Origin: Clostridia bacterium
GTDB taxonomy: Bacteria; Bacillota; Clostridia; Christensenellales; CAG-917
Direction of reading: 5' to 3'
Assembly: GCA_017618055.1 (NCBI GenBank)
Contig: JAFZVB010000010.1
Location: forward strand, 31,631 to 95,630
Length of the DNA: 64,000 nucleotides
Shown: piece by piece, positions 2,641 to 36,616 of the stretch
How the letters are laid out: every line of letters begins with the position of its first letter
How positions within the stretch are numbered: the first letter of the stretch is position 1
Notes under the pieces: model-generated
Told to the model about the DNA's origin: nothing
Seen by the model: only the letters and a program-made list of their open reading frames with translations
Databases searched by the model: none
Translations under genes and position numbers: made by a program

Positions 2641-5600
2641 TTATGCTACTGTTAAAGAACCATCAAGGTTTACAGTAATTGTGTAAGTTGTTCCAACACC
2701 ATAGTATCTTGGGAGTATTGTTCCAGCTGGGAATGTAATACCACCAATTGATTTAGATGTTGTTAATGTTTCAGTATCTAAGAGTGTACCGTTCTTATCT
2801 ACTAATGCACCAACTACACCAACCAACTTGTATACTACCTTTCTGCCTTTATCTGGAAGTGCAATACCACCTGTACCAGCAGAGAATGTAACAATTTGTG
2901 CTGTGGACAACTTATTATTGCCGCTTGCATCTTTTGGTGTTGCTGTACCAATCCATACGATTGTTCCCATTACTGTTCCACTTGTTTGCTTGTATGGCAA
3001 TCTATATGTTGCAAGTTTTCCACTTCCAGTTGTTGTTGTAGCAGTATTTTGATTTGTTACCTTGGTTGTAGTTGTTGTGAAGTTAACTGTAATACGTTCT
3101 TGTGAACCAAGGTAGATTGTTGCTACTCTTTCAGCTGCACTACTTAATCCATCAGAGATTGCACCAGTTGATGTATTCAATGTTAATGCAAATGTTGCTG
3201 GCATACTTACTTTAGCATAACCGAATGTAATTGATGTTGTTCCATCGGATGTGTAACCATAATCATTTGTTGGATAACCATCATCACCAATTGTAATGCT
3301 ACTAATCTTAGACTTAGCAAATGTTACTTTGTAGTTCTGTGGCAATGATTGTGAAAGTGGTGCATATGGATCAATTGTGTATGTTGTAGATGCAACACCT
3401 GATGCATTAACATCACTTGTGTATGGATAATTGCCAGTTGTTCTTGGTGAACCTGTGTATACACTTGTTACATTTGTTGCTTGCATCTTCTCTACTGCGA
3501 ATGGCAATCTGAAGATTTGTGTGCTTCCATCTGGACCAGTTAATAATGCATTGATGTATACTACACCGCCCATATAACTTGGTCTGAACTTAGAGTAACT
3601 CCATACTAAGCTATAGTTCTTATTTGCTTCGTAGTTAGTATCATCAGATGAATAGAACTTTTGTGTTCCTTCAGCTGTTGTAACTGTTAATGTTGTTGGC
3701 ATATCTGGAGCAATATAATCATATGGGTTAATGGATGTGATGCTTGATCCTGCTGTTGTTCCTCTCTTCAAGAAGCTTGGTGCAATAGCAATGATTGCTG
3801 CTTGATCGGCTGCTACAAGAGCTGTTGCTGTTCTATTCTTTACATTGATTGTAATTATAGAACGTTGTGTTCCAACTTTATTTCCACCGAAGTTGTATTC
3901 ACCAAATCCGTTTACATATACATATGCTTTATATACACCACCAGCGTAATCTATTGTTACACTCAATGTATTCCAAGCAATCTTTGTATAATCCATTACT
4001 TCGTTATTGAGATATACTTTACCACTATTTGGTAAGTACTTATATGTACCATAGATTTCGTAGTCTGTCATTTCAACATATCTTTCTTCAGTTACTGTTG
4101 TGTGGTCTTGGTTGTATCCAACTACATAGTTTACGAACTTATACTTAGCATCTGCAATGTTAATTGCACCAGTCTTTTCTGTTGTCTCAGCATAAGCATT
4201 GCCGTTTACCTTGTAGTACTTATCTCTTACATTATCATAGTACAATGTTGCCTTTGCATATTGTCCATCTTCATCGAGATAGTAACGAATACCTGCAAAG
4301 TAATCATCGTTTCTTGCATTGAGATAATCAGCATACTTGCCATCACTTAATGTCCATGGATCGAATGTTAATTCTGTTACATATGAACTTCCAACTTTAA
4401 TTCCACCCTTATTGTCTGTATCATTATTGATTGTTCTATCAATGAATGAGAGTGGTGCTGTCATTGTTTCTTTAGATACTCCATTTTGTCCAATAATTGT
4501 TACTTGAGCATTATGGACTCCACCTTCATATGTATACTTAACATCCTTTGTATTCCATTCGAGGTTTACAGTTGTTTGTGTTGTGTACATGAATACGTAT
4601 GCATCATCTGCTTGAGGTGCAATATAGTAATTCTTTGTATCACTATTGTATCTGTAGTAAATAGTATCACCATTATTGTATGTTAATACCTTGTATACAT
4701 AATCACCTTCTGCAACCTTTCCACCTGATACCCAAGCATTGTATTGTGCCATGCTTGTGATTGGTGTTGTGATAGCTCTTACATTTGCATACTTATCATT
4801 GTATGTCGCTGCGGAGATATATTGTCCATCTACCCAGTATGTTCCAGTCTCAGCGAAGTTCTTGTATCCATGTGAGTTGTAATGCTCTGTGTTGTAGACT
4901 GTGTCTGCATATTCAGTTACATATGGATCAAACTCGTAAACATATGAGAAGTCGTCATTGAATACGATATTTGAATTATACTTAGTTACTGTATTAGCAC
5001 TACGTATTACTTCAATCTTGTATGAGTCAATTACGATAGCATCATCTGCTTCTGCTGGATTCTTGTTTAAGATTTCGATTGTCAAATCAGCTCTTTGAAC
5101 TTTCTTTGCATCCGTTGCTGAAGCGATATCACCGTTTGTGGTCTTTCTAATGTAGTAGTTTCTACCTTCACCATTGGAGAATGAAATGTTCATTTGATCT
5201 GGGATTAAATCTAAATCGAAGTCGAATGCATTATCGAAGTAGATTGTCTCTGGCTTGTTGGTTCCCTTTGAGTATACGAATCTCATTAAGTTGCCTGTTG
5301 CATAATCTTCATAAGTCAATGTGAGCTTGGATGAAGACTCTGTTACCTTAATTAATGTGTAATCACTTGGCATTACAAAGAATTCACTTGCGATTGTACG
5401 GTTAACTACGGAGATTGGCATTGTAATGTATTGATATGCGTATACTTCATCAGATACTTTGTATCCAACTAAGAGTTGATATGAAGAATTGATATATCCG
5501 CCCTTCTTGAGTGCGTCTGCAATAATTGTGTCACTTGGTAATGTTACATAATGTACTAATGCATCATTTCCATCTGCGAGTCTGTTCTTCATTGTCATGC

Positions 5601-8600
5601 TTACTTTCTCTGGATATCCGTATCCACCATCAACTATATTGCCTTGGTCATCAAATAGTGTACCGAATGACTTATAGTAGTATGGATCAACAACCATTGA
5701 ACGTTGTGAAGCATTTTCAACTCTCTTAATTGTTCTATCTTCAATGTATACAGAGATTGTAGAATCAACCTTTGTACCATCTGCGAAGTTGTATCTGATT
5801 GGCAATTCGATTGTCTTACCAAATACGCTCTTGCACTTGCTTGCGTCACGAGAAGCCTTCAATAATGTATCATCTAAGATGTTGATTACAACGTTAACTG
5901 TTTGTGTTACGTCTTCTTCACCATTGTTGTACTTGATTTGTACACCAACTGTGTCTCCATCATTGAATAATACCTTTTCTTCTGCTGCATCAAGGTCACT
6001 ATTTGTAATGATTCCGTATGGGTCATATACAAACTTGATCTCGTTCATTATGCTTTCAACACCTACTACACTGATTGGTTCAATTGTTAAATCAACAATG
6101 TTGAGGATTGAAATATGATCACAAACTGCCTTTGCGTATACGATTCTATTTGCGAATCCACTTACTGTGTATGTAACTGGCTTGAGGTCGACAACATTCA
6201 ACCATTCAATTGGAACATCCTTAGTTGTTTGTACTCCATTAATTGTTGTGTAGTACTTAGCAGTTGTTGGTAATCCGTTTACGAAGTTTGCTGCCTTCAA
6301 TGTGAATGACTTGTTGTCTACATCGTTCCATGTTGTTGTGATGTCACCACTTACAAGCTCAACCTTATCTGCTGGGATAATAGTTGTTCTGAATAAGATT
6401 TCAGTTCCTTGGATCTCATATGTTGAAGGATCTGCTTCTACACCACCAATATACAACTTAGCATCATCAGCAAATGGTAATCCAGTACCTAAGATACCTT
6501 CTCTTACAACTACTCTATTTGCTAATTCTTCAGCTGTATATGTATCGAACAATGTCCATGTTACAGTTCTTTCTTTAATCATATCTTGATGGTCGATTGT
6601 TACTCTTGCCTTTGTTGGCATTGCACCGAAGTCTGCTACGCCATATTCAGTTGCAATATCATCATCTGTTGAATTTTCATCATAGTTAAATTCAATCTTA
6701 ATAACCTTATCATCAAGATGTTCAAAGATTACTTTATATCTCTTTGTTTGTGTAATAAGTTTTGCCTCAGCGTATACATCAACATACATTAAGATGTACT
6801 TGGTCTCGCCATCTGCATCTGTGAAGAAATCTGCACGAGTTGGGAGTACACCATCACCGATTTGTCCGTTTACACCGAAAATTCTTACCTTGACATCATC
6901 AATTGGCTCATAAGCATATTTCTTTACAAATACACTTGTTGATGTTTCTGTATAAGAACCATTTACATATACATAGACGTTAGAACCAGTGTATGTTGCC
7001 ATATCGATATCTTCGAATTCGCAATAATCATCAAATTCTACATATCCATTTGCAACAGCAACTCTGATGTATAATCCATCTGTATTCTCTTCTACGATAT
7101 TGTAGTATGTATCACCTGCATCGAATACGAATACTGAGCCAGCATGATCATTTACATATGTCTTTGCTTCATCTATATCAGCAATATTTAATGGTACATA
7201 ATGTGAGTTTTCGAGAATGTAGATTGTCTTTACGCCAACATCTTCTTCTGTTGCATCTACTCTTGTTCCCTTCTTGAACTTATTAGCATCATCAATTGCA
7301 ATGTTGCCTTTTACTTCAAGATATTTGTCATATGTTACATAGTATGCAGAGCTTACTTTGTAATATACTCTTCTTGCCCATGTCTCATAATCAACATACA
7401 AGCCGTTGAGTGATCTCAAATACTTGATTTGATCTGCTGTTGAGAGATATGGGAGATAATCTGCAAGAATTTGTTCTGTAGTCTTATTAGATACATCTGC
7501 GAACTCATAGTTTCCACCTACAGTTGCTCTTACCTTGGATGGGATTGCCCATACTGTACATGCATTGTATACTAATGAGTCATCATCTTGTGGAACAAAT
7601 CTATCGAAGTGTGAACCATCTTCATTTAACAATTCAACATTATTTACTTCATAAGATGGAGTAATAATTGTTGTGTTGAATGTTTGATTTCCAATTGTGA
7701 AGGAGATGTTACATCTAATGCTATCTTCATTTGCATTGTTGAGATAACTTGTGTAATCCCATCCACTTATGATCGCTAATGACTTGTTGCCATTGTATTC
7801 TTCTACACATACTACTGTGCAATTCTTGAGGACTGTCTTTCTATATGTTGCTCCAGTGAATCCTGAGATACCTCTGATACAGCTCCATGAATTCTCAAGT
7901 ATTGTCTTGTAATCTTCTGCTGTTTGATCTGGTGCACGGAAGTAATATTCTGGATGTGTTGAGTAAATATATGTATCAATACTATATACTGTTCCATCCT
8001 CACCTATTACTGCTTGTGGAGCATATGCTTTAGAAGTATAACTGTCTACATTTACAATTTGATTCCATGTGCCACTTGCAGCGGACTCAAGATTTGCTCC
8101 ATAAATATCATCTTTATAGAATGTAATAGCTTTTACGTTCTTTGTTGCAACTTTAAGTTTTACAACGATTGTTTGTGGAACGTATACTACATTGCCATCT
8201 TCATCCTTTGTATACTTACGTCCAAGATGTTTAGCATCATTACCTGTTCCAACTACAACTTCTGCAGGAACTGTAGCATAAATGATACCGCCCTTAGAAA
8301 TGCCTGTGATTTCCTTTGTACGTCCAGCATCTGAATAGTACTTGACTTGTGTCCAGTCTGGAGTCATTGTAATAGTTCCAGCGATTTCCTTGAATGATAC
8401 GTTCAATGTATTGTATGGTACATCATTTGCATCCTTACCCTTATACCAGTATGGGTTGAATGTATCTGATACTTCTCTTGTTACAACAGTTGGTGTTAAC
8501 TTAGCAAATGTTACTTGCTTGAAGAAAACTTGATCTCCACCGGTACTGCTGTTTCCAATTGTTAACTTGACATATACATTGTAATCATTGGATTCAAGTC

Positions 8601-10440
8601 CCTCATAGCTTACATATCTTGCGATATATTCTGCCATTGTAGGTGTATCAAGTTGTCCAGGAACGATCATATCGCTATCTGTTACACTCAATGTTGCAAT
8701 GCCTCTTCTTACATAATATGGACCTTCAAGTCTTGCTGTACCACTTGCATAAGAAATAGCTGTTGCTTTCTTTGAACCTTCCATTACAACCATTACTTGG
8801 TCACCGAATGATGTTTCTCTATCGATGTTGCCAAGAACTTCTTGTCCGGCTGTTGCATCCATATCATCGGAGCTATATGGGTTGAATGTGAATTCTGAAG
8901 AAACAGATGCCACCTTGCTTGAAGATACAACTATATCTACATAGACAACTTGTGATACATATCCTGCTTGTGCATATGGATACTTACATACTGTATCTTT
9001 ATCTGCGTTGCCAGTGAATCCATAATCACTGCCTGTTGCTGTCTTTAATTGATTGAGTTTGAATTCTTTACCACCAATATACATTGGAATTGTTACTCTA
9101 AGTCCTTCATAGAACTTAATCTTGTCATCACTTGTATTGGATGGTGTATTGTTGTCATCAACAAGTTTATCAATTGCATCTTCGAGCAATGATGTATCCC
9201 ATTCAACGGATAATCCGGAGAATGACTTGTTGCTTGCGTACTTACCACTTACATACTTGAATGACTTAATGTAACTAATGAATTCATTCTTATCTACTCT
9301 TCCATTGTTATTAGAATCTGGAATTACAGATGCTAATGTTAATGAGTTGAAGTTAGCAAATGTCTTTACATATGTGTCACCAGCTGTTGTGGTTGAATAC
9401 TTTGTAACACCTGTATCATTAATCTTGTAGTTAACCATTGGGATGGTTATTGTTTGAGATTGTGATGTGAAGCCCCATGAATATGAGAATCCAACTTTTA
9501 CGTTTGCATTGCTGAAGTCATAGCTATAATTTCCATAGTTCCATGAAATGGTTCCTGCTGGATAATTTCTGCTATTCTTCAACTTGTTGAATGCAGTGTT
9601 CTTTGTAGAATCAAATACTGCATATAATGGATCTGTAATATCTTCTGGATAGTACTTGGTTGCTGATGTTAATGAACCCTTTGTGTAATACAACTTATTT
9701 TCATCATCGAGATGTTGATAATACCATGTAGATGTTGTTGTATTTGTGCTTAATCCAGTTGTAAGAATTACGTTTCCGTTATCATCTAATTTTACACGAC
9801 TCTTATATGCAACACCTGTTACATGTGTCTTTCCATCGTTTTCAGTATCATATCTTGCGCTCAAGCCTGCACCAGTCATATCTTGTGCTACTGTTGCGAA
9901 TGTATATGTACCACCTGTTTGGAATGAGATCTTAACCATATCTGGTAAGTCTTCTACATTGTTTTGCATATCACGTGTGATTGCTTCTGTCTTCCAAGTT
10001 GATCCATCATACTTGTATGCCTTAATTGACTTGAATCCATAATCGTTAGTGACATATACAGGAATTGCTGCAACACAAATGTTGAGTGCATATCCGTATA
10101 CATAACCAGCGAACTTCTCGCCCATTTCACCTTCATATGGTGTGAAGTCTACACCACCTGCGTCCCAAACAACTACTGTAGCACCAGTATCTAAGCTTGG
10201 CTCACCATTGTTGAATGTTACATTAGCCTTTGCTGGGAACAATGTGTTGTCTTGGAATGCTGTTGCATTTAGTACGAAGTCTTGGCTTGAACTACCAACT
10301 ACAATATAACCGCTTCTATTAGCTGGGTCTGTAATATGGATTGAACTTGGTTCAGTACCAATTAATGATGCACTATCTGCTTCATCAAATCCAAGTAATG
10401 GACTTGTAATACTTGTGCTTTCTGTTGAATATGGATCTAT
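2641..10440 (-). repeat. C-terminal array of roughly two dozen Ig-like (beta-sandwich) units, Big_4-like pattern
   Basis: Unit starts recur as x-[FI]-[DN]-P-[YW]: IDPY about 10425-10448, FNPY about 8871-8905 and 8441-8476, INPY about 3675-3740, IDPY about 3320-3385. Each is followed by a pattern of the type (L/M)P..V.V.....V.W and then Q....V.V..(R/K). Confidence 0.5.
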
Positions 10441-28400: not shown

Positions 28401-31400
28401 GTAATGCAAGGAAGCTACTGTCTGGGTCTATTGGGAAGAATTCCTTTAACCACTTAGATCTTGAACCATCTTCTAAGTCAATGTAATCATACATTGCATA
28501 TACATACTTATATGCTCCAGCGTTATCCTTTACAAAGTTAACTGCATAAAGAGTTCCTGTGAATGTCTTTCTGTCCTCATCTGAAATTGCAGCAAAGGAA
28601 CCATCACTTTGTTGCTTAAAGTATGTGCCATTGAATAATGTATAATTATCACCAATCTTGAAATATGCTTGGCCAGAGAATGTATAAATATTATCTATGA
28701 GATTGTAATTTTCTCCAGATTTTGTATAGAAATTGTTATCAAGTGAGATATAATCTGCTCTATATCTTGTTCCCTTGAATACATCTGACTTCTCTGCATC
28801 TGTTAATGCAATAGCAAATCCTTGTTCGCTTGTAGATGTATAATCTTCACCATCTGGGCTTTCAACAAACTTATAGTAATTTCCAACTAATTTTTGTGGT
28901 TCATTGTTGTAATAGAAGTATCTATCTCCAGCATATGTGTATAATTCTTCTGCAGGGATTAATACATAGTTTTCTCCATCCTTCTTATAGAGGTTGTTTG
29001 CTAATGAAACATATAATGGAGCATATCTCTTTTCTGGAGGATTTGATAAATCTTTAATCTTATAGAAGTAACCATTTGTATGTTTGAAATATTCACCACT
29101 TGTATCTTCTACAAATGTTACAGCATAACGATCTGCGAATGCGACTGTATTCAATTCACCTTCATCCAATTCAATATATTGGTCATTTCCATCTCCAACA
29201 ATGAGAGATACGATAAATGCAGCGAGGTTCTTTGCAAATGAAATCTTAATTTCATCCATGCTTGCTGTTACAGAGTAAATTGTATTACTGAGTAATGCTG
29301 GAAGATCACTTAAGATTCCACCTTCGCCGGTTAATCCAGCTAATAATCCACCACTTTCTTCTTCTGTTGCTGCTGGTTCAGCTGTTGCTGGATCTTGTGC
29401 TGGTGCTGGAGTTGCTTGAGATTCATCTTCTTTCTTTTCTTCATCGTTAGACTTGTCTAAACCAAGTAATGTTACAAGGTTTACACCATCTAAATAAATC
29501 TTTGTATTTTGAATAATGTTAAGATTTGATTCTAAGAACAATGTGCTGGATGCAACACCACCAACTTCACCTTGATAGATAAGTGAAAGTGTAATTAAGT
29601 TAGTATTATTGCCACCTGCAATATATTCACCCTTGTATAACTCAATTCTTAAATCAGAGTGAGATAATACATAGTTTACATCAAATCCATTTTCCCAATT
29701 GAATCTTGCAAGGAGTGCAATTCTAAATCCAATTGTTGTGCTAATATTGTGGTTTACACCGATTCTAACGAGTAATCCGTGTAAAATAGATTGAACTGTC
29801 TTGGAATCTTGAGATACAACTGCTGAAATCCAATCACCAACTGTCCAATCTTCATAGCCACCATTTGTTCCTTGCGCTGAGAGGTTAATTCCACCTGTCA
29901 ATTCAAGGTAAACTTGGTCAAGAGCTATGTTATTATTTGCATCAAGTAATGTGATTGATTCAAATTTGTCTTCATTTAATAAAACATTATCTGCATCAAC
30001 TTGTTTCAATTCACCAATTTGTAATGCAATCTTATCAATAGAGATATCAAGACCATTCTCATCATCACCATTTTCGTCTACTATACCAAAGTGGATAGAA
30101 GCACCTAATCTAGATAAGAGGTCTGCCATCTTTTTGAATTTTGTTCCTGTGTATGTTGGTTCTGCTATAACATAATCACCATACTTGTTATTTAATGCAT
30201 ATTCACCATTCTTATTTTCAACGAACTTATATGTTCCTGCTGCATCTTCTACATATTCAGGAGCAATTGCGAGTTTTAACCATAATGCAATACCTGGTAA
30301 ATCAAGAGCAAGCTTATCTGCAAGAAGTTGTGTTAAACCATCAACTAATTTAACCATGAATCCAGTTGAAGAGATTTCTGCTTGAATGATGATAGCAAGT
30401 TTTTGTTTATCTGCTGCTGTTAATGCAAGTGTTGAATCAGAAGATGTTGTTCCTTCGGATGCTGGATTAATTCTAATAACATCTTTAGCATACTTGTATG
30501 TTCCATTTTCATCATCTCTTGTGTAAACATCATTGCCTTCTGCATCTTTAGACTTTGTATATCTTGGTCCAGCATATCCGCCTTCTGCTACTGGCTTTAA
30601 TTCATCGCCCTTAAGTTCAATATAAGCATCCTTAAGGATGAGATTCATAATTAACTCAAATAAATCTAATTTAATTGCTACTCTATCAATACCGAAGTTT
30701 GTTGCATCAAGATATAATTCACCACCCATATAGTATAATCCTAATAACAATTTAACTTCTGAGCTTTGAGATACTTTTTCAAGTTCAACTAAAAGTTGAG
30801 AATTATTCTTGTCTGTATAAATGTCTCTTTCACCATTGAGATATGCAAAGAGTGGATAGAAATCTAAGCTTGCTTGGACCTTCATATTATATCTTACATC
30901 AATTGCTTCAAGAATTTGAATTGCAGAGGATGTCAAATCACCAATATCATATCCTGCTTCTGCCATTGCATTTATTAAGAGTTCATTTTGGTTAAGGTCT
31001 ATTGTATCTTCAGCGATTCTAATATGCATACCGCCCTCAAGATCTAACCATACATATGGAGCCACAAAGATATCAATATATTCATCTTTGTCTTCAACGT
31101 GTAATGTATCAGAGTTAATTGCTAAATCAAATCCGCCTATTGTAATATTGAGTTCAAGTTGGTTATTGAGTGTAGCAAATAACATAATTTCTAATTGAGA
31201 TAAGTCTAAGCCGTCTTTGAATGAAATTCTTAATCCGCCATTTCCTTCTGCATCGAAGATAGAAATGGAAATTGTATCTCCAAAGTTTACACCTAATGCT
31301 TCGAGGAGGTTGTTAATTAAGTTTGTAGCAAGACCGATTTCGATATAATCTCTACTAATTGTTACATCGCCCATAATTGCAGCGAGTAATGCAATAATAT

Positions 31401-33954
31401 CGAATCCGCCGTCTCCATCTGCTGCTATAACTGCATCTGATGCTGCAGAACCTTCTACATCGTCTTTATTGAGTAATCCACCAACAAATTGTGAAATATC
31501 AAGGCAAATCTTATTTAACCCAATAGCTGTTGCATCTAAGTAAACAACTTGGTCTTCTAAGTATAATCCTAATACCTTCTTGAGTTCGCCTGTTGAAGGA
31601 TCTGTCTTTGTTGCATCGAATAATTCAATCTTTGCTACAGAATTGAGGATGCTATTTAGACCATCGCTTATATCAAGGTTTGCTTCAATCTTTAATAACA
31701 AGTTAGCATCAAATTTTTCTGCTATGTCGAATAAAATCTTAATTAAATAATCTTCAAGAGAATTTACTTGAATATCTGTTAATGTTCCTGGAGCAATATA
31801 GAACTTAATTTGTGTTTCGAGTTTGAGATAAATTGTCTTTAATGAAATGTTATCAAGAACTTGTGAGATTTCAGATAGTTTTCCGATTGTACCAAGTGAA
31901 ACAAAGTTGTTGTCTCCAATTGTACTAATCTTTCTCTTTGCACTACATGTTGTTGTTCCGAATTTAGCATTTACGCCAATACCAATTGACATACCATCGA
32001 AGACACCCATTGCATCTCCAAGTCTTAAATCGATATTGATTAACTTCTCTTTTGCAACACCATAGTTGTAATATGTGATATCGAAACTTCTTATAGGAAG
32101 TTTTGTTCCGTATAATGGATTGTCTACTTCATTTCCATCATCATCTTTCTTTGTTGCTGGGAAGATTAATTCGCTAATATAGTCAATTGCATCATTAGAA
32201 ATTGCTACCAATAATGAACGAATATTTAGGAGGTTGTCATATGGAGCTTCTTCTGTTTCAATCTTAATGCTCTTAACTATATCAATAATTAAATCAAGAA
32301 CTGAATTTACTGTTCCACTTGCAGCTGTTGCTGAAGAAATTCTACGTGGAATTGTTCCGTCTTCGAGTTTTTGTAATAACTCTTCGTATGTTCTAATTTC
32401 TGCTTGAGATAATGCTTCGCTTACGCTAATACCACTTAATAAGTTCTCGATTAATGTTTTAACATTAATACCACTTAGCAAGTCATCTATAATATTTGAT
32501 AAGTTGAGGTCTGTAATCTTATAACGACCGAATTCACCTATCATATTAGACATGTCTACATAAATAGTTTCTGTAGCACCAACATAGTAGATTGCTAATC
32601 TTTCTTCAGTGCCTCTAGATAGAGCATCTCTAATTTTAATTTCTAATTCTGTCTTGGAATTGTCTGTTAAATTTAAGCTACCTTTAATATCAATTGTTAA
32701 TGCATAGTTTGTAGCTGCTGTATTGAGATTTAATCCCCAAAGTGGAGAATCTGGTGGTAACATATTAACCAAGAGTTTGGATAATAATTTTCCTAAAGCA
32801 TCGTCAATATTTCCAATAGTAATTCTCTTTTCTGAGGTATTAATAGCTGCATTAAGTGTAATATCGAAGTCTAAAACCGAATATTCTCTGGTGACTTCTT
32901 TGAGAGCATCTGGTAGGAGGACATAAGATGCTGCATCTTCACCTTGTTGTAATTCATCGCTGTACACGATGTTAGGATCTACACCCTTGCTTATTTGTAA
33001 AGCACCGACAGAAAGGGCGATGTCTTCTGTGAAATATCCATAAATATCGGCTGTATCGGTCTTCATGGAATCCATTGGAGCGTCTAAGAATAGTTCTAAA
33101 GAACTAAGCTTGTTATCTTTAATCTTTGTATCTAAAACAATCTTAACTTCGCTACCGACTATTGCATCAATACGAGATAAGTCTAAACCAAGAACTTGGA
33201 AGATTAAGTTCTTAATATCATCGTTTAAGACACCTGAGATCAAACCAAGTACCATATCCATTAAGTCTTCTACTTGGAATGGGAACTTGATGTTCTCTTC
33301 ACCATTACCAAGGTCTATAATGTCAATGGTCTCTGGAAGCAACATACTTGTTAACAATCCAGATAATGTTTGACCACTCATTAAGTCAATAAATGTTCCG
33401 AGGTCTAATCCAAGGAGTGTATTATAGAAAAGATCCGCAACACTTGTTCCTGCGAACATGTTGTGAATTCTATCAGCAAAATATGCTAAGTCAATCTTAT
33501 CTGTCTTAACAATTTCGGCTCCTTTCTTAACCCCCGTGAAGTCTGCATAACACCAACCATCAACGTAGTACAACGCAGCAACACGGCTTTGGACTCCATC
33601 TACGGTGATTTTATCCAAGCCCATGTAAATTCTTGAATTAGGCGTGTCCTCCTGATTAATGGATCCAGCAACTTGAAGGACGAACTTGTTTCCATTTCCG
33701 TTCTTCTTGAAATCAAATCCCAATATGGTATTGAAATTTAAGAATCCAGCTGTGGATGTGTTTGTGTTAAGTGCTGCATTTTTGACTTTCTCCCATGCAT
33801 AAGCACTTGAAACTGTATTGACAGCGGTACCTTCTGCTGGTGGTTCCACTTCAATAGTTTGTGGCTCAACTGTCGTCTTCTTGTTACATGCAAACAATGT
33901 ACAGCAACATGCAATCAATAAAATGACGATTAAAAGTAAATAAAGTTTTTTCAT
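2641..33954 (-). CDS. giant surface lipoprotein (about 10,437 aa), family unknown
   Basis: One frame stays open for over 31 kb in AT-rich DNA. GGAGG-aaaa-ATG at 33954. N-terminus MKKLYLLLIVILLIACCCTLFAC|NKK is a signal peptide plus lipobox. TAA stop at 2641-2643. A promoter and an upstream terminator bracket the 5' end. Confidence 0.9.
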   Translation of the reverse strand: MKKLYLLLIVILLIACCCTLFACNKKTTVEPQTIEVEPPAEGTAVNTVSSAYAWEKVKNAALNTNTSTAGFLNFNTILGFDFKKNGNGNKFVLQVAGSINQEDTPNSRIYMGLDKITVDGVQSRVAALYYVDGWCYADFTGVKKGAEIVKTDKIDLAYFADRIHNMFAGTSVADLFYNTLLGLDLGTFIDLMSGQTLSGLLTSMLLPETIDIIDLGNGEENIKFPFQVEDLMDMVLGLISGVLNDDIKNLIFQVLGLDLSRIDAIVGSEVKIVLDTKIKDNKLSSLELFLDAPMDSMKTDTADIYGYFTEDIALSVGALQISKGVDPNIVYSDELQQGEDAASYVLLPDALKEVTREYSVLDFDITLNAAINTSEKRITIGNIDDALGKLLSKLLVNMLPPDSPLWGLNLNTAATNYALTIDIKGSLNLTDNSKTELEIKIRDALSRGTEERLAIYYVGATETIYVDMSNMIGEFGRYKITDLNLSNIIDDLLSGINVKTLIENLLSGISVSEALSQAEIRTYEELLQKLEDGTIPRRISSATAASGTVNSVLDLIIDIVKSIKIETEEAPYDNLLNIRSLLVAISNDAIDYISELIFPATKKDDDGNEVDNPLYGTKLPIRSFDITYYNYGVAKEKLINIDLRLGDAMGVFDGMSIGIGVNAKFGTTTCSAKRKISTIGDNNFVSLGTIGKLSEISQVLDNISLKTIYLKLETQIKFYIAPGTLTDIQVNSLEDYLIKILFDIAEKFDANLLLKIEANLDISDGLNSILNSVAKIELFDATKTDPSTGELKKVLGLYLEDQVVYLDATAIGLNKICLDISQFVGGLLNKDDVEGSAASDAVIAADGDGGFDIIALLAAIMGDVTISRDYIEIGLATNLINNLLEALGVNFGDTISISIFDAEGNGGLRISFKDGLDLSQLEIMLFATLNNQLELNITIGGFDLAINSDTLHVEDKDEYIDIFVAPYVWLDLEGGMHIRIAEDTIDLNQNELLINAMAEAGYDIGDLTSSAIQILEAIDVRYNMKVQASLDFYPLFAYLNGERDIYTDKNNSQLLVELEKVSQSSEVKLLLGLYYMGGELYLDATNFGIDRVAIKLDLFELIMNLILKDAYIELKGDELKPVAEGGYAGPRYTKSKDAEGNDVYTRDDENGTYKYAKDVIRINPASEGTTSSDSTLALTAADKQKLAIIIQAEISSTGFMVKLVDGLTQLLADKLALDLPGIALWLKLAIAPEYVEDAAGTYKFVENKNGEYALNNKYGDYVIAEPTYTGTKFKKMADLLSRLGASIHFGIVDENGDDENGLDISIDKIALQIGELKQVDADNVLLNEDKFESITLLDANNNIALDQVYLELTGGINLSAQGTNGGYEDWTVGDWISAVVSQDSKTVQSILHGLLVRIGVNHNISTTIGFRIALLARFNWENGFDVNYVLSHSDLRIELYKGEYIAGGNNTNLITLSLIYQGEVGGVASSTLFLESNLNIIQNTKIYLDGVNLVTLLGLDKSNDEEKKEDESQATPAPAQDPATAEPAATEEESGGLLAGLTGEGGILSDLPALLSNTIYSVTASMDEIKISFAKNLAAFIVSLIVGDGNDQYIELDEGELNTVAFADRYAVTFVEDTSGEYFKHTNGYFYKIKDLSNPPEKRYAPLYVSLANNLYKKDGENYVLIPAEELYTYAGDRYFYYNNEPQKLVGNYYKFVESPDGEDYTSTSEQGFAIALTDAEKSDVFKGTRYRADYISLDNNFYTKSGENYNLIDNIYTFSGQAYFKIGDNYTLFNGTYFKQQSDGSFAAISDEDRKTFTGTLYAVNFVKDNAGAYKYVYAMYDYIDLEDGSRSKWLKEFFPIDPDSSFLALQWGNQYRLEFSLGITPVALGLELSKIRISFSDTASVTETVINKAEYNNVLNFEDLTISAAIAIDFSLAEASEDNPYAIGDYISVFLAELALKFGITVESDIGVNWELRLDANLNTKDSTKAQILLELRDLEKRKMLFGLYLVNGNLYVDMGILSDYDFVVEGTNFAVLLTNVLNKVLGGLGINFGTDGEATTAADPGTVDAGIILNLAERDIQLKITEAVIFSIVSALIGTGDAGNAVELLQQLGLKLSIDLDLDIRNTALALNIDSSILDPKNSISETDIDGNTVYTTEVYRDFFKLGLNVVSPKISFAPQESDIAAIKTSIEKSVYAGILLVELTDEEKDTGYGRWVKEPVMLDTSEYIVGDQIVGDFYTYFDGYFYPATGSYKASEHYFRIEDTTVKAEAVYKRLDARTFGQDLDEEHDFDRFDVFNTNPILSFDLDLFVDMFISTTFKYEGEKAKNYSPSQRYTKRLSDGRFVQDNEGLYVQQSLNMDELLDALIELPFVQNLLVSLENNESVGELLGPMVRSLANSLSFQALYNAPLDLDIVLSIKGNIDLGVLGITSLLTTGDLDELNFDIQTLLSAINLGIEISLNKSESKVTFGIYLVNGDLVIDLSGISGPTIKASLFDILSMFDVDASTILNSGEATASADEGESTLEKVAKILNGVVEAIIFETGTQNIPFINKTYNTLNDVKVKFKSNIIANLLEMLFNKPFVVEGYELDEQNSGIYLFFHDSRFANNPNLVNSQGINPFKGLALELEASLSNGMYFDMATGIGATIRIGKEAEEMLSQEQINAAVEITDYLENLFGTFGLIDKVGTYVTVSSYESQYVDAEKRVDVATRYDQVVDSFRQVSGLVGSHVLVVGEEEYASNRRFLQIDEYAIYFANGVKADISDTLRYARTEVKDGDIIIGYTYEQDSTGEYVLYATQMHVLKSLYLKAKKLDTLPQTMATYTPVYRYVQNDEGGYVFIREGEYISVKDYVKYLGQERVASLVRYSRSEVYVQSNVGKFVEFRNAYLAVVAYSTYTGIAVSDIPKEMRYELDHATQVQKDDGALVYVDVLYVDITKYCLLNAITEDAVDRRIRYNFDGYRYSRDDNGDYVRAEGNEYLGIDSTGIVVDFNLYTTAVADSARYRYIKTVVTQNNQGDYIKLVKGTILSLDDYSYYTGTAIADIPLSIRIDADGNPDQNGNRVKISADMIVTLAQYCFKNGISDANIDTMVPISIRSAVKEVYDQWVDENGDGYKDWTDSDEDGKDDKTGIATTTLLTLADYPYTFIPTEYSSQNIYLSINARLFFETVDKKSVNIGGLLTNWLGDAIIELTSGNIFKDGIGARIAINLDLASLNLNDGLNGILQSDFSNIEVGLELLETNENGEIIVDEYGNTKQKGGLYLYHGTLYLDGMGLFPDANQYAYVPNFMDLIQNVLDYDFSFQEILDGISKEIGLATSSAESSTSEDARTAILELLTTDTSVQLVLTKSLIAVIVAALLPEVGSVAEVFDQFSLTLGIDFGSSNYKMFSDWKYKSAQGETYDPDLKYYTLVYNTLQVGTDYNVGDIISVVAYTLDGSNYVPAYGTYEDGKTYYTLTKTALTAGIDYQAGNTIETGVYQLYSTENALDYVFDDIVGSKQRYTVVSATSQTYTDTASFTAKAGYVLEEDAMGYQVYTMLTQAKIHNIITNKGSVEVYRPTFVQNDNGLYVYIEDDFGQYYACILPLTERYTQHAGIDYELTNGFDEGDQPRIPADIDSEYKDEVKVASQQGQFARAYVEDRWLYIDTERYPLMYSTTGIAPFEPKVEKFVAENSGIAGFQYTDGLKMVVNTTTKESYTYVYYYNNYYVVSGLYNKLTGYTIDSKGTSYSKLHVIKNLYELGITLAFDINGVHAGLTIGGLKIDFGAGHSILPARIIKQQTEGSYTIKYKYNEIYGANAFDSVAKKDRYTLTKYGYVQDDYGNYAHHDYEYCPLVIFYDSTIELAFSVELELSIDEGKIDIGPIFEDLLGDLDGVSIEIPSTTKGYSSAHFRLDASLKLDLYDLSNSELVLELYSIGITGYETLWLGVYYIADVIYINAAVLGLPKLSITSFGVMKYLNTILKDIIGEFYNENVLPDAEDSSEAGVASDAVTANTANGEIDVSVLFDRRTLSIQVANTFIRWALGLVVIDNTTGLTIADLISEHLIANVGVDMRLEDGFNLDLDVALGFKGDRYTIIREDEADVTDKFYRFGRDDLGKYVLEDGVLRVLKPSEKVDSITRYSLEENTEQVQGKNKVYFDTYADAKKTGYYVAYLSEAKSEANMEDYDMNLDLYVGIKNLNIAFNSVHEFLLTAEDIREYSEVGELEHISISEVIDITTLFKADSNIDLAEILTHFFPEIDAESIIAEITAESDAHGDIHRIIEAEINMDIKIAALMNYFRQVFTTGTANFNSDFSVSDLIAIIKAVLNKDDNLNVYQILDDVLSYINTSLVIRTRCGYDEGTGEYTDTHNWISIYFVGGEFEELVENNFGVYGYKSDKTTFVDKEHRYSHYFKAADNNGPYYYNTATKKYDLITENFSEDVDTYYYDSTYCYLNENGEYYRHNGGMYIDLSYFNVPSLYLQSTSIEHLFESLSLNDTINNLIGGSEASTPEEKISATSQSDAEASVTFPLLNDEISGYIRAFLYGLKITSQLTSIIVQPDYINEILQLVMGEDDAFRFSYLDSIQYQVDEQGNRLHDSSLTIYADRSAYNFITSKYAFASEINESNARFIATYNQEEGQYLIAPVDYIITIAEFEAEFGTAYTVDPTTCEISSTEIDRRFENAPIRCNSVGDPQVDGDHVSFMRYEYQEKKNLSAAQLADYTNNNDGVYFDIEMNDAYVYVGNGFTYFGAAESDASTIGIFNDYTDYEYFYGYDGINYFKLNKKANGYIYIAETDAPYYGIDVYVPSGKYEKLTKVTKTERRYKYTDVETYYTPVKYTGGEWAIRSDGSYVLLASLSLVEQGEVQVNERYKMMPMYLNNSVVSIGHDHWPAFRYRTLVNNEYDDTINYGRLEVDGQLRYMEMIRFNEDVKYVTYEANRYGESYVLYIPVMMNNLLIRPTGYTPVETTPAEIISKAKVGTDYRFYGYDVKTLEFIPLTWDSTNNYWYLSNDSEKARYAGSLYMLSIHDEYNPILTIPASTVKNDSFLTMQLYLWDHSITIDVNIPKIDAVDFTYLTKTDYEAIYGVGSAPKAALFTSEPQYIYTPIDPVSFVYDNTEEYFYINQGIYYSLNDTSIYTYSAGAYSLAGTADFTHGDAWDVKYYVGIPEDDPTIYKLIEKKKVYTRAISKYVYTRSEDGEYVRVKVDSSVTYSKLAYSKITSAEYDAYVLAAAHYVYDEKTYSYVVSTDPGATLTYKDILYVYDSETHHYISITNYEVEHSGYDFSSTTIYKARGIEYVSTDDVYYISLSLDGSMYMNSANVYKSMAEFAQSKKSSMYNSKTIWKKDSYASAESNGKYVKVIDNYYGTNDGYYMLVNDYKALVDKPTTDGKLYNIYSNTDDYIRVINGNWYCADNNPKDNGHSIVDMLYTEGLIVDTDKIYVFQQGGYAEFGTVLAKKDVLDNNTQYYLLYSSGASSTLNKVIGGIVGDLDTALEFTKELSGEIEFKITLSYGGTLLLGTNEETGEFQFGLDVFNLELAIDTWRRTNHDDDNTLTHVFGLYYDRDDTVGKSGLYLDLSYFLNEEAKVYVDLSEYPLEDFINDKLYYDKVETYYEATAAAEESEAVTSAGSTLSGGNMTAAYFNIYTSAFGISITSGFLKVLLNNLITGFEQYAGYIPNLEIFIKGELDPYKLKVGLTLDDEEGNALVEAGVRLNGITGDYNTGTVLDFGSLSKYDSIDMTSKDYIFYYGNFVRVDKAGTVSNYDDSVQYYGKDGERKGYVKIASDDYGVAGSWYYTEDGYEAVNGARYNNKVYTRSSNIRVNEDLTKAMKLIETNKYDSYDFKAGTDENSEVIDFYGLVNGEFVQVQYDVFNLVSDNSGLWYYTFDNEAACKLAETRFRGEVYARTVAWGELVGVEPFNVKYDKTLQQWQYVRYDSQGNEELDAYGNVKKYAYAGDVKFVYTGALYRVTKVYGVVDGVEQELSYSTTDGWNFGGIPFDGEIYKKDEAGLATMDYVKIMGLNIGDLFADGLSLDNLDLGALLGDLNSFELGLNVDFQLTFADIISFTEQMSTFIGKDFNFIATSLTKAGFSFDTVFDISIELKAYLDLARLIKGLTATDGNNDILSMLVGTTIYGKIGLKSTYLATYNPEELTDWEATEIILLANLTENADKDVLLNIYLDVSDLSRQFNALGDLFDKVKYEGLNLSKLINGSSSESSAARDSVAKSAALSLNTDAGDVDMGLLGTISIGETIYSLLDALIGRIMITNDMLSIGFKETLLGSIVEMISSRLTDEEKSKLPTLRVTNGKDTSGITLDFNDDGHIALYAVIGIESGILSYSNDSTYTSLSDVKYAFDDKSGQYYVAKSTSGLNNYVMLSDGEYSLVKYVDKLDRWALQSYVALTAEEKAIRAKVYVKENSSYVEREYNANNGLTYYKYVGGDYIELRYADKLLLEKTLYTKSGDVYTEYTGAVDTSATYYVETGNYTYTMVPRYVAITNAERAILEATLYTKSGNTYTAETGAFDPTKTYYIDSGLNKVELTNEQRLVLLKATFTTTDGTTFVETAFDKTAASTTYYFLDSYEMIRKIDNQGTYLYLGYYNIELKASNIYARINKDFSIDTEIDKDGIHYEVYKDLTKLSLNLNIEFDISLFGNSDPGITGNDNVVDLSEILNLVANLMSNEDLEEAFSGAELYTRFKGDIGNDDGPTYRLSLNVFLDIANFKNLQATIELRQYKKPYTGEFMPNPVLCVYLFNDNIYVDAHGLFGDAGLISIDNLGLAKLLDTIELGGTKLGTYLGHDMSQYEEDGDSSSEATTAAHVMDNVEDVSPVFGTAAYLLMTTFPRQFFIQLNSAAVNAIINRIREAQGKADSDYLPDIGALLIAFDSENPDKQLYTNIYAKVSDSFYLALEAKSVTWSREKQPCEFNISKVLTTSSYTSSTAIFNSGSDKQYFRYEKASYIALTDAQAAEYSANGGMVYKDYTGAANRPAFIADSDINFAKVGNNYEYSSTGSKIYMTAVKYESAADYTYFRFQQDNYIEIPMYKGDRYKLDGSTYELDDAGAYYYDKEEDLYKSLIGGTYEQVLAGEAHYQNNYTGTIYESNFQSVYDVGSGEIKLETLSLSVTGELNLSSEGIVKGQANYDKTFSYWIADFLAELLGESDLAGGILSGITSDKISLILPQKTINVVINIMADVNIPAIVKYGISGILYSDIYLQLIEGAPINKTFMEIYYLGSSRLTKTGNIYTLSKNGTIFSDCIYLNLEGLGLGSIAFHGLTGILGAKQPNYTSASTASETEASEAVSAAASSSLYLELGVEHGGFSLKLEKSVIDFALGLLDLDLDLSKMPLQYIEMESRYSLDVGVTELAITAVLDSVGTMLGIRLGDFDLSFSERKLDLDAKIAACQYGSAGITYSKTAGIGALLQNVIDSLNVGLTIHIDRKVDTINLTTLSWFTWKAKRDNRYTSVTLNGIKTKSSIDDEPATYKLKFSISALHPAASGDAMTANLYFFNNDLVLGGFNLQTTIADLLANFLKKIDLGSGKPMFEFANVMGADEATYTYPNSSTTDPVKDTTASANDKYKNGNYSYAADLEGLIAGLEIDFCTSNNYHPYYSGMGTINGSAATDMKYVSLHIEFGKKAFNELLIFLYTTVLSLLQGKEGEESKGIDTSSNWNGSDDAYFVNYSAWGWTSDGSSGEEQIDSNVLGTYGVSGGLAKMFEHIDGLTSTDAKVNFLQPIVKSIPIALLRTVVYNLANVSSTLIALAGAVAGGTLGNFCRLVGAILPLPFASMSTSVANPSAHIYIDMDPDPSAYNLSSSYTMHPGVQAIELYVNAQKVVIGDPNSSLNGTQIYTWGGYTSYRAATSTATQTRYIIPSLGDGVSNMANTQEMLVLRIDPYSTESTSITSPLLGFDEADSASLIGTEPSSIHITDPANRSGYIVVGSSSQDFVLNATAFQDNTLFPAKANVTFNNGEPSLDTGATVVVWDAGGVDFTPYEGEMGEKFAGYVYGYALNICVAAIPVYVTNDYGFKSIKAYKYDGSTWKTEAITRDMQNNVEDLPDMVKISFQTGGTYTFATVAQDMTGAGLSARYDTENDGKTHVTGVAYKSRVKLDDNGNVILTTGLSTNTTTSTWYYQHLDDENKLYYTKGSLTSATKYYPEDITDPLYAVFDSTKNTAFNKLKNSRNYPAGTISWNYGNYSYDFSNANVKVGFSYSWGFTSQSQTITIPMVNYKINDTGVTKYSTTTAGDTYVKTFANFNSLTLASVIPDSNNNGRVDKNEFISYIKSFKYVSGKYASNKSFSGLSVEWDTSLLEDAIDKLVDDNNTPSNTSDDKIKFYEGLRVTIPMYIGGKEFKLNQLKTATGSDYGFTGNADKDTVCKYPYAQAGYVSQVVYVDIVVSSSKVASVSSEFTFNPYSSDDMDATAGQEVLGNIDRETSFGDQVMVVMEGSKKATAISYASGTARLEGPYYVRRGIATLSVTDSDMIVPGQLDTPTMAEYIARYVSYEGLESNDYNVYVKLTIGNSSTGGDQVFFKQVTFAKLTPTVVTREVSDTFNPYWYKGKDANDVPYNTLNVSFKEIAGTITMTPDWTQVKYYSDAGRTKEITGISKGGIIYATVPAEVVVGTGNDAKHLGRKYTKDEDGNVVYVPQTIVVKLKVATKNVKAITFYKDDIYGANLESAASGTWNQIVNVDSYTSKAYAPQAVIGEDGTVYSIDTYIYSTHPEYYFRAPDQTAEDYKTILENSWSCIRGISGFTGATYRKTVLKNCTVVCVEEYNGNKSLAIISGWDYTSYLNNANEDSIRCNISFTIGNQTFNTTIITPSYEVNNVELLNEDGSHFDRFVPQDDDSLVYNACTVWAIPSKVRATVGGNYEFADVSNKTTEQILADYLPYLSTADQIKYLRSLNGLYVDYETWARRVYYKVSSAYYVTYDKYLEVKGNIAIDDANKFKKGTRVDATEEDVGVKTIYILENSHYVPLNIADIDEAKTYVNDHAGSVFVFDAGDTYYNIVEENTDGLYIRVAVANGYVEFDDYCEFEDIDMATYTGSNVYVYVNGSYTETSTSVFVKKYAYEPIDDVKVRIFGVNGQIGDGVLPTRADFFTDADGETKYILMYVDVYAEAKLITQTKRYKVIFEHLDDKVIKIEFNYDENSTDDDIATEYGVADFGAMPTKARVTIDHQDMIKERTVTWTLFDTYTAEELANRVVVREGILGTGLPFADDAKLYIGGVEADPSTYEIQGTEILFRTTIIPADKVELVSGDITTTWNDVDNKSFTLKAANFVNGLPTTAKYYTTINGVQTTKDVPIEWLNVVDLKPVTYTVSGFANRIVYAKAVCDHISILNIVDLTIEPISVVGVESIMNEIKFVYDPYGIITNSDLDAAEEKVLFNDGDTVGVQIKYNNGEEDVTQTVNVVINILDDTLLKASRDASKCKSVFGKTIELPIRYNFADGTKVDSTISVYIEDRTIKRVENASQRSMVVDPYYYKSFGTLFDDQGNIVDGGYGYPEKVSMTMKNRLADGNDALVHYVTLPSDTIIADALKKGGYINSSYQLLVGYKVSDEVYAYQYITMPISVVNRTIASEFFVMPSDYTLIKVTESSSKLTLTYEDYATGNLMRFVYSKGTNKPETIYFDNAFDFDLDLIPDQMNISFSNGEGRNYYIRKTTNGDIASATDAKKVQRADLTIEILNKNPAEADDAIVIDSYKIEVIRSANTVTKYNSNIVFNDDFSYVYEFDPYVTEYADTVYNTEHYNSHGYKNFAETGTYWVDGQYISAATYNDKYANVRAITTPITSMAQYNAWVSGGKVAEGDYVYKVLTYNNGDTIYYRYNSDTKNYYIAPQADDAYVFMYTTQTTVNLEWNTKDVKYTYEGGVHNAQVTIIGQNGVSKETMTAPLSFIDRTINNDTDNKGGIKVGSSYVTELTFDPWTLSDGKYADYLNARNDDYFAGIRYYLDEDGQYAKATLYYDNVRDKYYKVNGNAYAETTEKTGAINIADAKYKFVNYVVGYNQDHTTVTEERYVEMTDYEIYGTYKYLPNSGKVYLNNEVMDYTKIAWNTLSVTIDYAGGVYKAYVYVNGFGEYNFGGNKVGTQRSIITINVKNRTATALVAADQAAIIAIAPSFLKRGTTAGSSITSINPYDYIAPDMPTTLTVTTAEGTQKFYSSDDTNYEANKNYSLVWSYSKFRPSYMGGVVYINALLTGPDGSTQIFRLPFAVEKMQATNVTSVYTGSPRTTGNYPYTSDVNASGVASTTYTIDPYAPLSQSLPQNYKVTFAKSKISSITIGDDGYPTNDYGYTSDGTTSITFGYAKVSMPATFALTLNTSTGAISDGLSSAAERVATIYLGSQERITVNFTTTTTKVTNQNTATTTTGSGKLATYRLPYKQTSGTVMGTIVWIGTATPKDASGNNKLSTAQIVTFSAGTGGIALPDKGRKVVYKLVGVVGALVDKNGTLLDTETLTTSKSIGGITFPAGTILPRYYGVGTTYTITVNLDGSLTVA
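10741..10902 (-). other. hydrophobic Gly/Ala/Leu-rich segment in the junction region of the giant protein
   Basis: Translation is SIPIALLRTVVYNLANVSSTLIALAGAVAGGTLGNFCRLVGAILPLPFASMSTS. Confidence 0.5.
11560..32610 (-). repeat. about 14 highly diverged copies of an unassigned module (hallmark G-[LIV]-Y-[LYF]-x2-4-G-x-[LIV]-Y-[LVI]-D), protein-level repeat
   Basis: Anchor motifs include 32554-32592 (IYYVGATETIYVD), 31534-31569 (GLYLEDQVVYLD), 30706-30741 (GLYYMGGELYLD) and 27955-27990 (GLYLVNGNLYVD). Further anchors are 26563-26598 (GIYLVNGDLVID), 24205-24240 (GLYLYHGTLYLD), 22213-22248 (GVYYIADVIYIN), 17368-17421 (GLYYDRDDTVGKSGLYLD) and 13825-13860 (CVYLFNDNIYVD), plus weaker copies. Confidence 0.6.
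29350..29457 (-). other. acidic / Pro-Ala-rich low-complexity linker inside the giant protein
   Basis: Translation is DKSNDEEKKEDESQATPAPAQDPATAEPAATEEESGG. It is the only long low-complexity tract I saw in the protein. Confidence 0.7.
33886..33954 (-). other. lipoprotein signal peptide (SPase II type) of the giant protein; lipidated Cys is codon 23
   Basis: Two Lys residues, a 13-residue hydrophobic core, then L-F-A-C (Cys codon at 33888-33886). Confidence 0.75.
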
Positions 33955-34012
33955 TTTTCCTCCGTGTATATATACGTCTGTCGTACGTATGTACACATAA
34001 TTAGTTAAAGAT

Positions 34013-34988: not shown

Positions 34989-35034
34989 AATGACCTCTTA
35001 TTTTTATGCATAGAATTAAATAATTATGCAATTT

Positions 35035-36555: not shown

Positions 36556-36573
36556 TTTAACCTCCATTAAAAT

Positions 36574-36601: not shown

Positions 36602-36616
36602 TACAACTTAATTAAA

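Follow-up and report, generated by a model that had tools for sequence, protein, structure and literature searches.

Which kind of protein is encoded by a single reading frame more than 31 kb long, and what it may do for the cell, are the questions raised by a locus of a Clostridia bacterium (assembly GCA_017618055.1). The window analyzed is a stretch of 64,000 nucleotides (nt), positions 31,631-95,630 of the forward strand of contig JAFZVB010000010.1, and all coordinates given here are window positions. The frame, referred to as the giant gene, is a genuine and intact gene, maintained by selection, of an uncultured Clostridia bacterium of Christensenellales-like type. The encoded protein carries the signal of a lipoprotein destined for export and, judged from its amino acid (aa) sequence, belongs to an uncharacterized family of giant lipoproteins.

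A preliminary description of the locus, made from the sequence alone, had noted one frame open over more than 31 kb of AT-rich DNA, read it as a real coding sequence (CDS) under purifying selection, and assigned to it a promoter at 34013-34042 and a GGAGG-N4-ATG start. Each point is borne out, the promoter as a promoter-like site and the ribosome-binding site as read in the sequence (Table 1). From the ATG at 33954 the translation runs over 10,437 codons with the terminal stop only; at 35% G+C a stop is expected by chance about every 13 codons, and the log10 of the probability of meeting none is about -360. The open reading frame (ORF) listed on the minus strand, 2641..33996, would code for 10,451 aa if started at an upstream GTG. 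The ATG at 33954-33952 is the supported start, because GGAGG with a 4-nt spacer precedes it and the orthologues begin at the same MKKL.

Two orthologous loci were found in a scan of species-representative genomes, one in the metagenome-assembled genome (MAG) of an uncultured Clostridia (L001, 80% identity), the other in a ruminal Christensenellales MAG (L002, 51-53%). Both genes are collinear with the giant gene and stop-free across all 4,530 codons compared, and the ratio of nonsynonymous to synonymous substitution rates (dN/dS) against the L001 orthologue is 0.16, uniform in every 500-codon tile. The exact protein encoded next to the giant gene on its downstream side is present on 14 contigs from independent samples, four of which were read. 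Three of these, from other assemblies, match the window gap-free at 99.7% across 5.1-5.6 kb, made up by the 3' part of the giant gene (2,935 nt compared) and downstream DNA; the partial giant ORFs called in them measure 5,791, 5,240 and 2,715 aa. One 6.5-kb contig (L005, ENA ERZ28653804) carries a 5-bp deletion (CACCA) at 3358-3362, which disrupts the frame some 260 codons ahead of the stop; it may represent either a genuine truncated variant or an error of assembly. This short contig speaks for the view that the frame is an artefact, either a chimeric assembly or a decaying pseudogene left open by luck. That view is effectively excluded by the improbability of a chance frame of this length, the low dN/dS, the collinearity of homologues along the full length, the three gap-free assemblies, and the lack of repeats able to mislead an assembler, none having been found at the DNA level within the giant gene. 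The same assemblies and the same lack of repeats answer the concern about chimerism raised in the preliminary description.

To find relatives, 1.84 billion representative proteins (50% clustering) were searched exhaustively with a profile, the query being an alignment of 12 paralogous modules of the giant protein. The search returned 82 representative relatives at E<=1e-3, 14 of them at E<=1e-30, and single proteins matched the module as many as 14 times; giant members measure 7,286-7,924, 6,581-6,590, 5,654, 6,720 and 7,125 aa. None of ten relative clusters looked up carries a name in any source, no Pfam domain was found in 15 relatives scanned, and literature searches gave no description of the family. 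The earlier statement that the protein has no recognizable family holds for curated libraries, and fails in that an unannotated family exists, with full-length collinear homologues of 7.3-7.9 thousand aa. The survey of homologues and gene order proposed at the time thus gave 82 relatives and an order kept in five genomes.

Relatives of the main subfamily (7.3-7.9 thousand aa) align with the giant protein from the N- to the C-terminus at 23-33% identity (BLASTP). The alignment gaps fall exactly on its Tyr-rich stretches, and the extra 2,500-3,150 aa of the giant protein are therefore likely to be in large part lineage-specific insertions. The giant protein shares the traits that define the family, namely an N-terminal lipobox, about 12-15 modules marked by the motif LGLYYxxGxLYLD, and end-to-end collinearity. 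The 15 modules of the giant protein are, by these alignments, ancient and non-interchangeable. Distant members have been called as two overlapping ORFs, of 1,834 and 6,732 aa in L014 (GCA_009781445.1, 8001-21505), and of 1,758 and 4,479 aa in L012 (518-13794), which suggests frameshifts or sequencing errors in single giant genes.

Between residues 30 and 7631, 15 diverged copies of one module of about 220-300 aa were found, by means of a hidden Markov model (HMM) seeded with the LGLYYxxGxLYLD motif; the independent E values (i-E) in Table 1 refer to the family module HMM. The copies are 15-25% identical to one another, and self-BLAST of the protein detects almost no internal repetition. The preliminary description had left the tract as an unknown-module region: no curated match was found, as then stated, and the tract is nevertheless not featureless, being formed by copies of one predicted alpha/beta module with Tyr-rich hairpin insertions. 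The latter contain 8.5-13.8% Tyr, and about 25 copies of the hairpin-like motif xYxYVxDDxGxYV reside in these stretches between modules; the hairpins resemble YD repeats in outline only. Compared with seven distant relatives, the conservation maximum of the whole protein falls at aa 3801-3900 in module 9 (49% mean identity), and a stretch of module 14 (aa 7101-7200) reaches 39% mean identity to seven relatives.

An acidic loop rich in Ser, Thr and Ala comes after each module core. The acidic motif E-[AG]-x-[STAV..]-[AS]-x-[DEH] ('SEATTAAD') occurs seven times (about one expected) in the linker after module cores, at aa 834, 1167, 2040, 2496, 3959, 5567 and 6762, residues 3959-3965 corresponding to 22057-22077. 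It is kept in the main subfamily and absent from distant subfamilies, and may serve as a hinge, a glycosylation site or a processing site.

The signal peptide of the giant protein (MKKLYLLLIVILLIACCCTLFAC) ends in L-F-A-C23, has LYLLLIVILLIACCCT as the core after MKK, and is the only transmembrane (TM)-like segment of the protein (Kyte-Doolittle peak 2.96), none being found beyond it. A positively charged n-region, a hydrophobic h-region and a lipobox of the form [LVI][ASTVI..][GAS]C, with its Cys inside the range of about 15-35 residues usual for Lgt/LspA substrates, are all present. Two candidate lipobox cysteines, L-I-A-C16 and L-F-A-C23 (33886-33909, aa 16-23), can be told apart, and the CCC triplet at aa 16-18 is kept in close orthologues. 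The Cys conserved family-wide corresponds to C23, and is found at position 19-27 (mostly 24-27) in about 26 relatives with an intact N-terminus. At the other end the protein terminates in ...VNLDGSLTVA (...TITVNLDGSLTVA), which is not hydrophobic. Cys is rare (0.32%), and Tyr (7.5%), Asp (8.1%), Thr (8.2%), Gly (7.4%) and Asn (6.1%) are abundant.

The protein was scanned against Pfam and NCBIfam as tiles of 1,000 aa (eleven tiles for Pfam), with nothing above threshold; neither library matches RTX, Rhs/YD, cadherin-like or FIVAR/Ebh domains in it. No Pfam match to SLH, CWB2, choline-binding, LysM or SH3b domains was found in ten 1,000-aa tiles (E<=0.1), in the last 437 aa (E<=0.001) or in 15 relatives. 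Regular expressions (regex) for HExxH, GGxGxD, the Rhs core, Y.YD..G and the cadherin motif DxNDN gave zero matches, no LPxTG motif was found anywhere by the same means, which leaves the protein without a sortase anchor signal, and searches of PDB sequences with the protein gave no matches. By Pfam, NCBIfam and motif searches, the protein has no enzymatic or toxin signature. What the preliminary description had listed under these heads, namely the L-F-A-C lipobox, the C-terminal sequence, the bias in composition, and the lack of LPXTG, of a C-terminal TM segment and of HExxH, Rhs-core, RTX, FIVAR or cadherin signatures, agrees with the present data, the lipobox being moreover conserved across the family.

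The conserved junction that joins the modules to the C-terminal region features the motifs LPxPFASYD..PNPSxNxYIDL, PGIQAIELMVNAEK and WDASxVDLT...LAGYVYGYALNxVVAxIPVYVTN. In the C-terminal region two patterns recur, 'LP..v.V...G...v.W...GG.Y.a.V.v' and 'xxFDPY'. Residues 8300-9400 are the most variable part of the protein, and the tip (aa 10065-10437) is conserved. Homologue searches with 1,200-aa queries retrieved one and three orthologous fragments only, the three being those obtained with the C-terminal region. The unit pattern, written as 'LP..v.V...G....v.W......GG.Y.a.V.v', recalls the Big_4 (PF07532) consensus. No Pfam score of the units rises above chance (the best are Big_4, E=0.27, and FlgD_ig, E=0.057, one of seven sequences for either), and a profile search of PDB sequences with the C-terminal unit (alignment A7) found nothing. 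The immunoglobulin (Ig)-like array placed here by the preliminary description is accordingly not demonstrated. A repeat defined from the 'xxFDPY' motif gave poor alignments and was dropped. The larger L014 piece has a CarboxypepD_reg match, which we take to be an Ig-like beta-sandwich, in the C-terminal part of that distant relative.

Structure prediction and Foldseek comparison, also proposed earlier, were run on aa 3790-4350, a span which takes in module 9 and the first half of module 10 (to aa 4350). A first AlphaFold2 model, based on the 12 window paralogues only, had a predicted local distance difference test score (pLDDT) of 46, and the Foldseek search made with it, which gave weak LprG matches at a probability of 0.2, is meaningless. 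The second model was built on alignment A6, with 69 rows that include 14 orthologues, 11 window paralogues and 43 paralogous modules of relatives. It reached a mean pLDDT of 73.8 and a predicted template modelling score of 0.61, the core of module 9 exceeding a pLDDT of 90. The span is predicted to fold into antiparallel strands of 10-17 residues and amphipathic helices, with small hairpins in the Tyr-rich insert, and the acidic loop is predicted to be disordered (pLDDT <50). Hydropathy of the two strand faces differs by 3.4 Kyte-Doolittle units (1.6 +/- 0.3 in shuffled sequences), which fits a sheet with a hydrophobic face covered by amphipathic helices.

Against PDB and BFVD this model gave no Foldseek match at E<=1e-3, and no solenoid, bridge-like, LolA or LprG fold. 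The best template modelling (TM) scores are <=0.15, save one weak partial match to 4eg9 (TM-score 0.29, target-normalized). A likeness to porins and FadL was discarded, as it falls among the scores <=0.15 and reflects long beta-meanders only. A profile search of PDB sequences with module alignment A4 found nothing, and hhalign of the module profile against Escherichia coli TamB gave a probability of 0.04, a weak comparison since TamB was a single sequence. The module matches no curated family or solved structure, and would represent an undescribed domain family.

Gene order upstream of the giant gene is partly conserved. Five genomes share the order apgM, (GH127-like), small ORF, GH20 hexosaminidase, PIG-L deacetylase, giant gene (34155-40978 in the window; L001, L002, L007 and L010), which persists where the giant proteins are no more than 23-26% identical; in the two genomes farthest removed, apgM is 62% and GH20 39-44% identical. 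The order is not kept in more distant relatives of the termite-gut type. An HGSNAT-type acetyltransferase gene lies within the block in L007 and L010, and a 318-aa ORF at the matching place in L002. The terminator-like hairpin of the upstream PIG-L gene spans 34128-34107, and the promoter-like site of the giant gene lies downstream of it. As hairpin and promoter-like site separate the two genes, functional coupling of PIG-L and the giant protein is doubtful; for this reason, and because synteny is lost in distant relatives, PIG-L and GH20 were set aside as leads to function.

From the N- to the C-terminus the protein thus comprises a Cys for lipid anchoring and a short linker, the 15 modules with Tyr-rich hairpins between them, the junction, and the beta-rich C-terminal array. 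The role that we favour, in which belief and doubt are about equally balanced, is that of a lipid-anchored surface fibre spanning the wall, with the C-terminal array contacting a ligand or a cell in attachment or aggregation. The protein would be exported by Sec and lipidated by Lgt and Lsp, its N-terminus being retained in the cytoplasmic membrane (outer leaflet). Together the 15 modules would form a long segmented stalk crossing the wall, and would display the array of C-terminal beta-domains far from the cell, where it may bind a ligand, most likely a glycan or the surface of a further cell. The bacteria would thereby attach, or aggregate with one another, in the gut or rumen. What is expected of a surface protein agrees with the size, the extreme acidity and the beta-rich C-terminus, in which Tyr, Thr and Asn abound and a Big_4-like pattern is seen. 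The lack of enzymatic or toxin signatures and the CarboxypepD_reg match of the distant relative count in favour as well, and the variability of aa 8300-9400 fits a fibre, as the end that faces a ligand is expected to vary.

Several observations weigh against this role. Function is deduced from architecture alone; about 1.5 of the 15 modules are confidently modelled (aa 3790-4350 only), rod shape and packing between modules are conjectural, and the Big_4-like or Ig-like nature of the C-terminal units is statistically unsupported. Typical giant adhesins are made up by near-identical tandem repeats, vary in copy number, and are present in a strain-specific manner. The DNA of the giant gene, in contrast, is non-repetitive, every module is matched by a single orthologous one in relatives (25% identity), and the locus is syntenic in five genomes, a pattern more in keeping with a core structural component than with an accessory adhesin. 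A serious rival, which we hold to be possible and still rather unlikely, is accordingly a core scaffold of the envelope, a membrane-tethered element of fixed length (spacer or ruler, sheath, S-layer-like) rather than an adhesin that binds a ligand, each of the 15 non-interchangeable modules making its own contacts with the wall, partners or neighbour molecules. The gene appears to be single-copy, and keeps its place in the five genomes where apgM falls to 62% identity; modules correspond one to one with those of relatives at 23-33% identity, conservation peaks inside particular modules (49% in module 9, 39% in module 14), purifying selection is uniform, neither DNA repeats nor copy-number variation are found, and the sequence is near-identical across independent samples. 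Such a scaffold is at odds with the lack of SLH, CWB2 or other wall-binding domains in the Pfam tiles, with a family length that varies from 5.6 to 10.4 thousand aa through large lineage-specific insertions, and with the loss of synteny in more distant relatives. In its boldest form, to which we lend a shade less credence, the protein would be the first known case of a megadalton lipoprotein present in single copy throughout the order and forming a hitherto unseen, membrane-tethered scaffold or sheath of the envelope in Christensenellales-like Clostridia, with 15 modules of a new alpha/beta fold and acidic loops serving as sites of modification or cross-linking.

The acidic loops could also be cleavage sites ('SEAxxAxD') of a polyprotein, releasing about 15 surface proteins of which only the first would be lipid-anchored. 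The motif is commoner than expected (seven copies, about one by chance), sits in the linker after module cores and, in the single loop modelled, in a stretch predicted to be disordered, and is conserved in the main subfamily. It separates, however, two halves of a module rather than neighbouring modules, and is absent from distant subfamilies, and a flexible hinge or a place of glycosylation would account for the acidic loop equally well; Pfam and NCBIfam scans revealed neither a protease domain nor an autoprocessing motif of known type, and we consider processing of this kind improbable. More improbable still is a role in the binding or transfer of lipids, in which the amphipathic strands would form a hydrophobic groove (AsmA/TamB/VPS13- or LolA/LprG-type) carrying lipids or lipoglycans off the membrane. 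The N-terminal anchor followed by long arrays of amphipathic strands, with a disordered loop after each set, would suit such a groove, as would the weak LprG matches of the low-confidence first model. These matches are not found with the confident model, nor are bridge-like or LolA folds; Pfam gives no AsmA, DUF490 or other family match, hhalign against the single TamB sequence is as negative as reported above, and the hydrophobic face of the sheet could be covered by the amphipathic helices. Clostridia of this kind are, in addition, presumably monoderm, so that a second membrane to which lipids might be carried would be lacking.

Christensenellales-like Clostridia are common residents of gut and rumen and are poorly cultured; to our knowledge, almost nothing is known of their cell surface. 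The giant gene fills 31 kb of a small genome and has the same order of 15 modules in distant relatives, yet carries neither name nor domain annotation in the sources consulted, which reveals a large blind spot of annotation. As a surface fibre, the protein would be a prime candidate for what makes these bacteria aggregate and contact their partners; as a scaffold, it would add a new element to the architecture of the Gram-positive envelope. In either case the module is well suited to structural study and to the definition of a new domain family, and relatives can be annotated with the profiles A4 and A6.

Table 1. Features of the giant gene and of its predicted product
Feature	Residues (aa)	Window position	Strand	Remarks
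Giant lipoprotein CDS		2641..33954	-	10,437 aa, 1.16 MDa, net charge about -630; stop TAA 2643-2641
Promoter-like site		34013..34042	-	TTGACT-18 nt-TG-extended TAAAAT; 10/12 consensus match, consensus match only
Ribosome-binding site GGAGG		33959..33963	-	4 nt 5' of ATG at 33954; read from sequence
GC-rich hairpin		2589..2612	-	29 nt past the stop; without T-tract on the gene's strand
Lipoprotein signal peptide	1-23	33886..33954	-	MKK, hydrophobic core, lipobox L-F-A-C23
Module 1	30-250	33205..33867	-	i-E 7.6e-27
Module 2	357-646	32017..32886	-	i-E 1.5e-28
Module 3	704-940	31135..31845	-	i-E 1.1e-32
Module 4	965-1255	30190..31062	-	i-E 5.3e-30
Module 5, degenerate	1344-1618	29101..29925	-	i-E 2.3e-05; collinear with relatives
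Module 6	1902-2126	27577..28251	-	i-E 1.5e-38
Module 7	2346-2630	26065..26919	-	i-E 1.9e-22
Module 8	3132-3422	23689..24561	-	i-E 8.1e-28
Module 9	3814-4054	21793..22515	-	i-E 4.1e-57; motif KGYSSAHxRLD
Module 10, halves split by insertion	4143-4576	20227..21528	-	two partial matches, i-E 0.21 and 1.2e-10
Module 11	5409-5676	16927..17730	-	i-E 4e-31
Module 12	5996-6294	15073..15969	-	i-E 3.9e-12
Module 13	6585-6856	13387..14202	-	i-E 8.3e-35
Module 14	7064-7331	11962..12765	-	i-E 4.2e-08; motif YYLGSSRL...AIYIDA.GLGLGKIKF
Module 15, degenerate	7336-7631	11062..11949	-	i-E 7.9e-05
Conserved block	4992-5350	17905..18981	-	collinear with relatives; unmatched by the module profile
Largest Tyr-rich insertion	2668-3130	24565..25953	-	gap in collinear alignment with relatives
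Other Tyr-rich insertions	1497-1837, 3375-3692, 4598-4992, 5754-6001, 6345-6540, 6870-7050, ~8816-9216		-	gaps relative to relatives
Conserved junction	7640-8316	9007..11037	-	BLASTP blocks of 28-33% identity
C-terminal beta-rich region (~2,100 aa)	8317-10437	2644..9006	-	recurrent sequence patterns

Next to the giant gene on its 3' side a Mem_trans permease gene starts at 2575. Farther downstream, a gene at 292-1422 encodes a 376-aa protein with an SPFH/Band-7 domain and three C-terminal zinc ribbons, and is kept downstream of the giant gene in independent contigs. Elsewhere in the window, a stand-alone Condensation-domain protein of 431 aa is encoded at 41722-43017, with no other parts of a nonribosomal peptide synthetase nearby. 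Two adjacent fusions at 46247-49427, one of a STAS domain with an APH-type kinase-like domain (375 aa), the other of a SpoIIE-type phosphatase with an HATPase_c_2 anti-sigma-kinase domain (678 aa), resemble a partner-switching pair of unusual kind. The stretch 51799-55852 carries the gene for an anaerobic ribonucleotide reductase NrdD of 791 aa, with an N-terminal ATP-cone and a C-terminal glutaredoxin-like domain, and nearby that for a radical-SAM activase (51799-52620). An Rfam scan of the window detected tRNAs only. A Met-Met-Glu-Val cluster lies at 45213-45546, its tRNA-Val being overlapped by an ORF starting with TTG (45498-46235) that is probably spurious at the 5' end; divergent tRNA-Pro(CGG) and tRNA-Gln(CTG) genes at 57405-57647 adjoin that of a WYL/WCX-domain regulator (56304-57293).

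Among known systems, the staphylococcal Ebh/Embp proteins share with the giant protein a size of about 10,000 aa, export, and a modular, extended build, thought to reach past the wall. Ebh and Embp have helical repeats of the FIVAR/GA type recognized by Pfam and a C-terminal TM anchor; the giant protein features an N-terminal lipid anchor, diverged modules of predicted alpha/beta type that Pfam does not recognize, and non-repetitive DNA. AsmA, TamB and YhdP similarly combine an N-terminal membrane anchor with a long run of amphipathic beta-strands with loops, but no similarity in sequence, profile or fold to the giant protein was found, each module of the latter has helices, and its host is presumably monoderm. 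Metagenomic ORFs of 10,000-30,000 aa have been reported in uncultured bacteria, mammalian-gut Clostridia included, those of Omnitrophota with many TM regions and SecA-DEAD domains, those of Clostridia with RCC1, Listeria-Bacteroides, YG and leucine-rich repeats and dockerin (bioRxiv 10.1101/2023.11.21.568195). By Pfam and TM scans the giant protein has neither their TM regions nor SecA-DEAD nor any of the repeats listed. Giant1-5 of Apilactobacillus kunkeei, elongated extracellular proteins of 3,000-8,000 aa, were likewise approached by structure prediction; they feature an N-terminal beta-solenoid akin to that of serine-rich-repeat adhesins, and recombination occurs within their five-gene cluster (PMC12863079). 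Like these, the giant protein is a very large, predicted extracellular protein of Firmicutes; unlike these, it is the product of a single gene, has a lipobox and a different module, and matches no solenoid. It would be akin in kind to the giant surface proteins of Firmicutes, and differ from them in the type and polarity of its anchor, in the type of its module, and in its mode of evolution.

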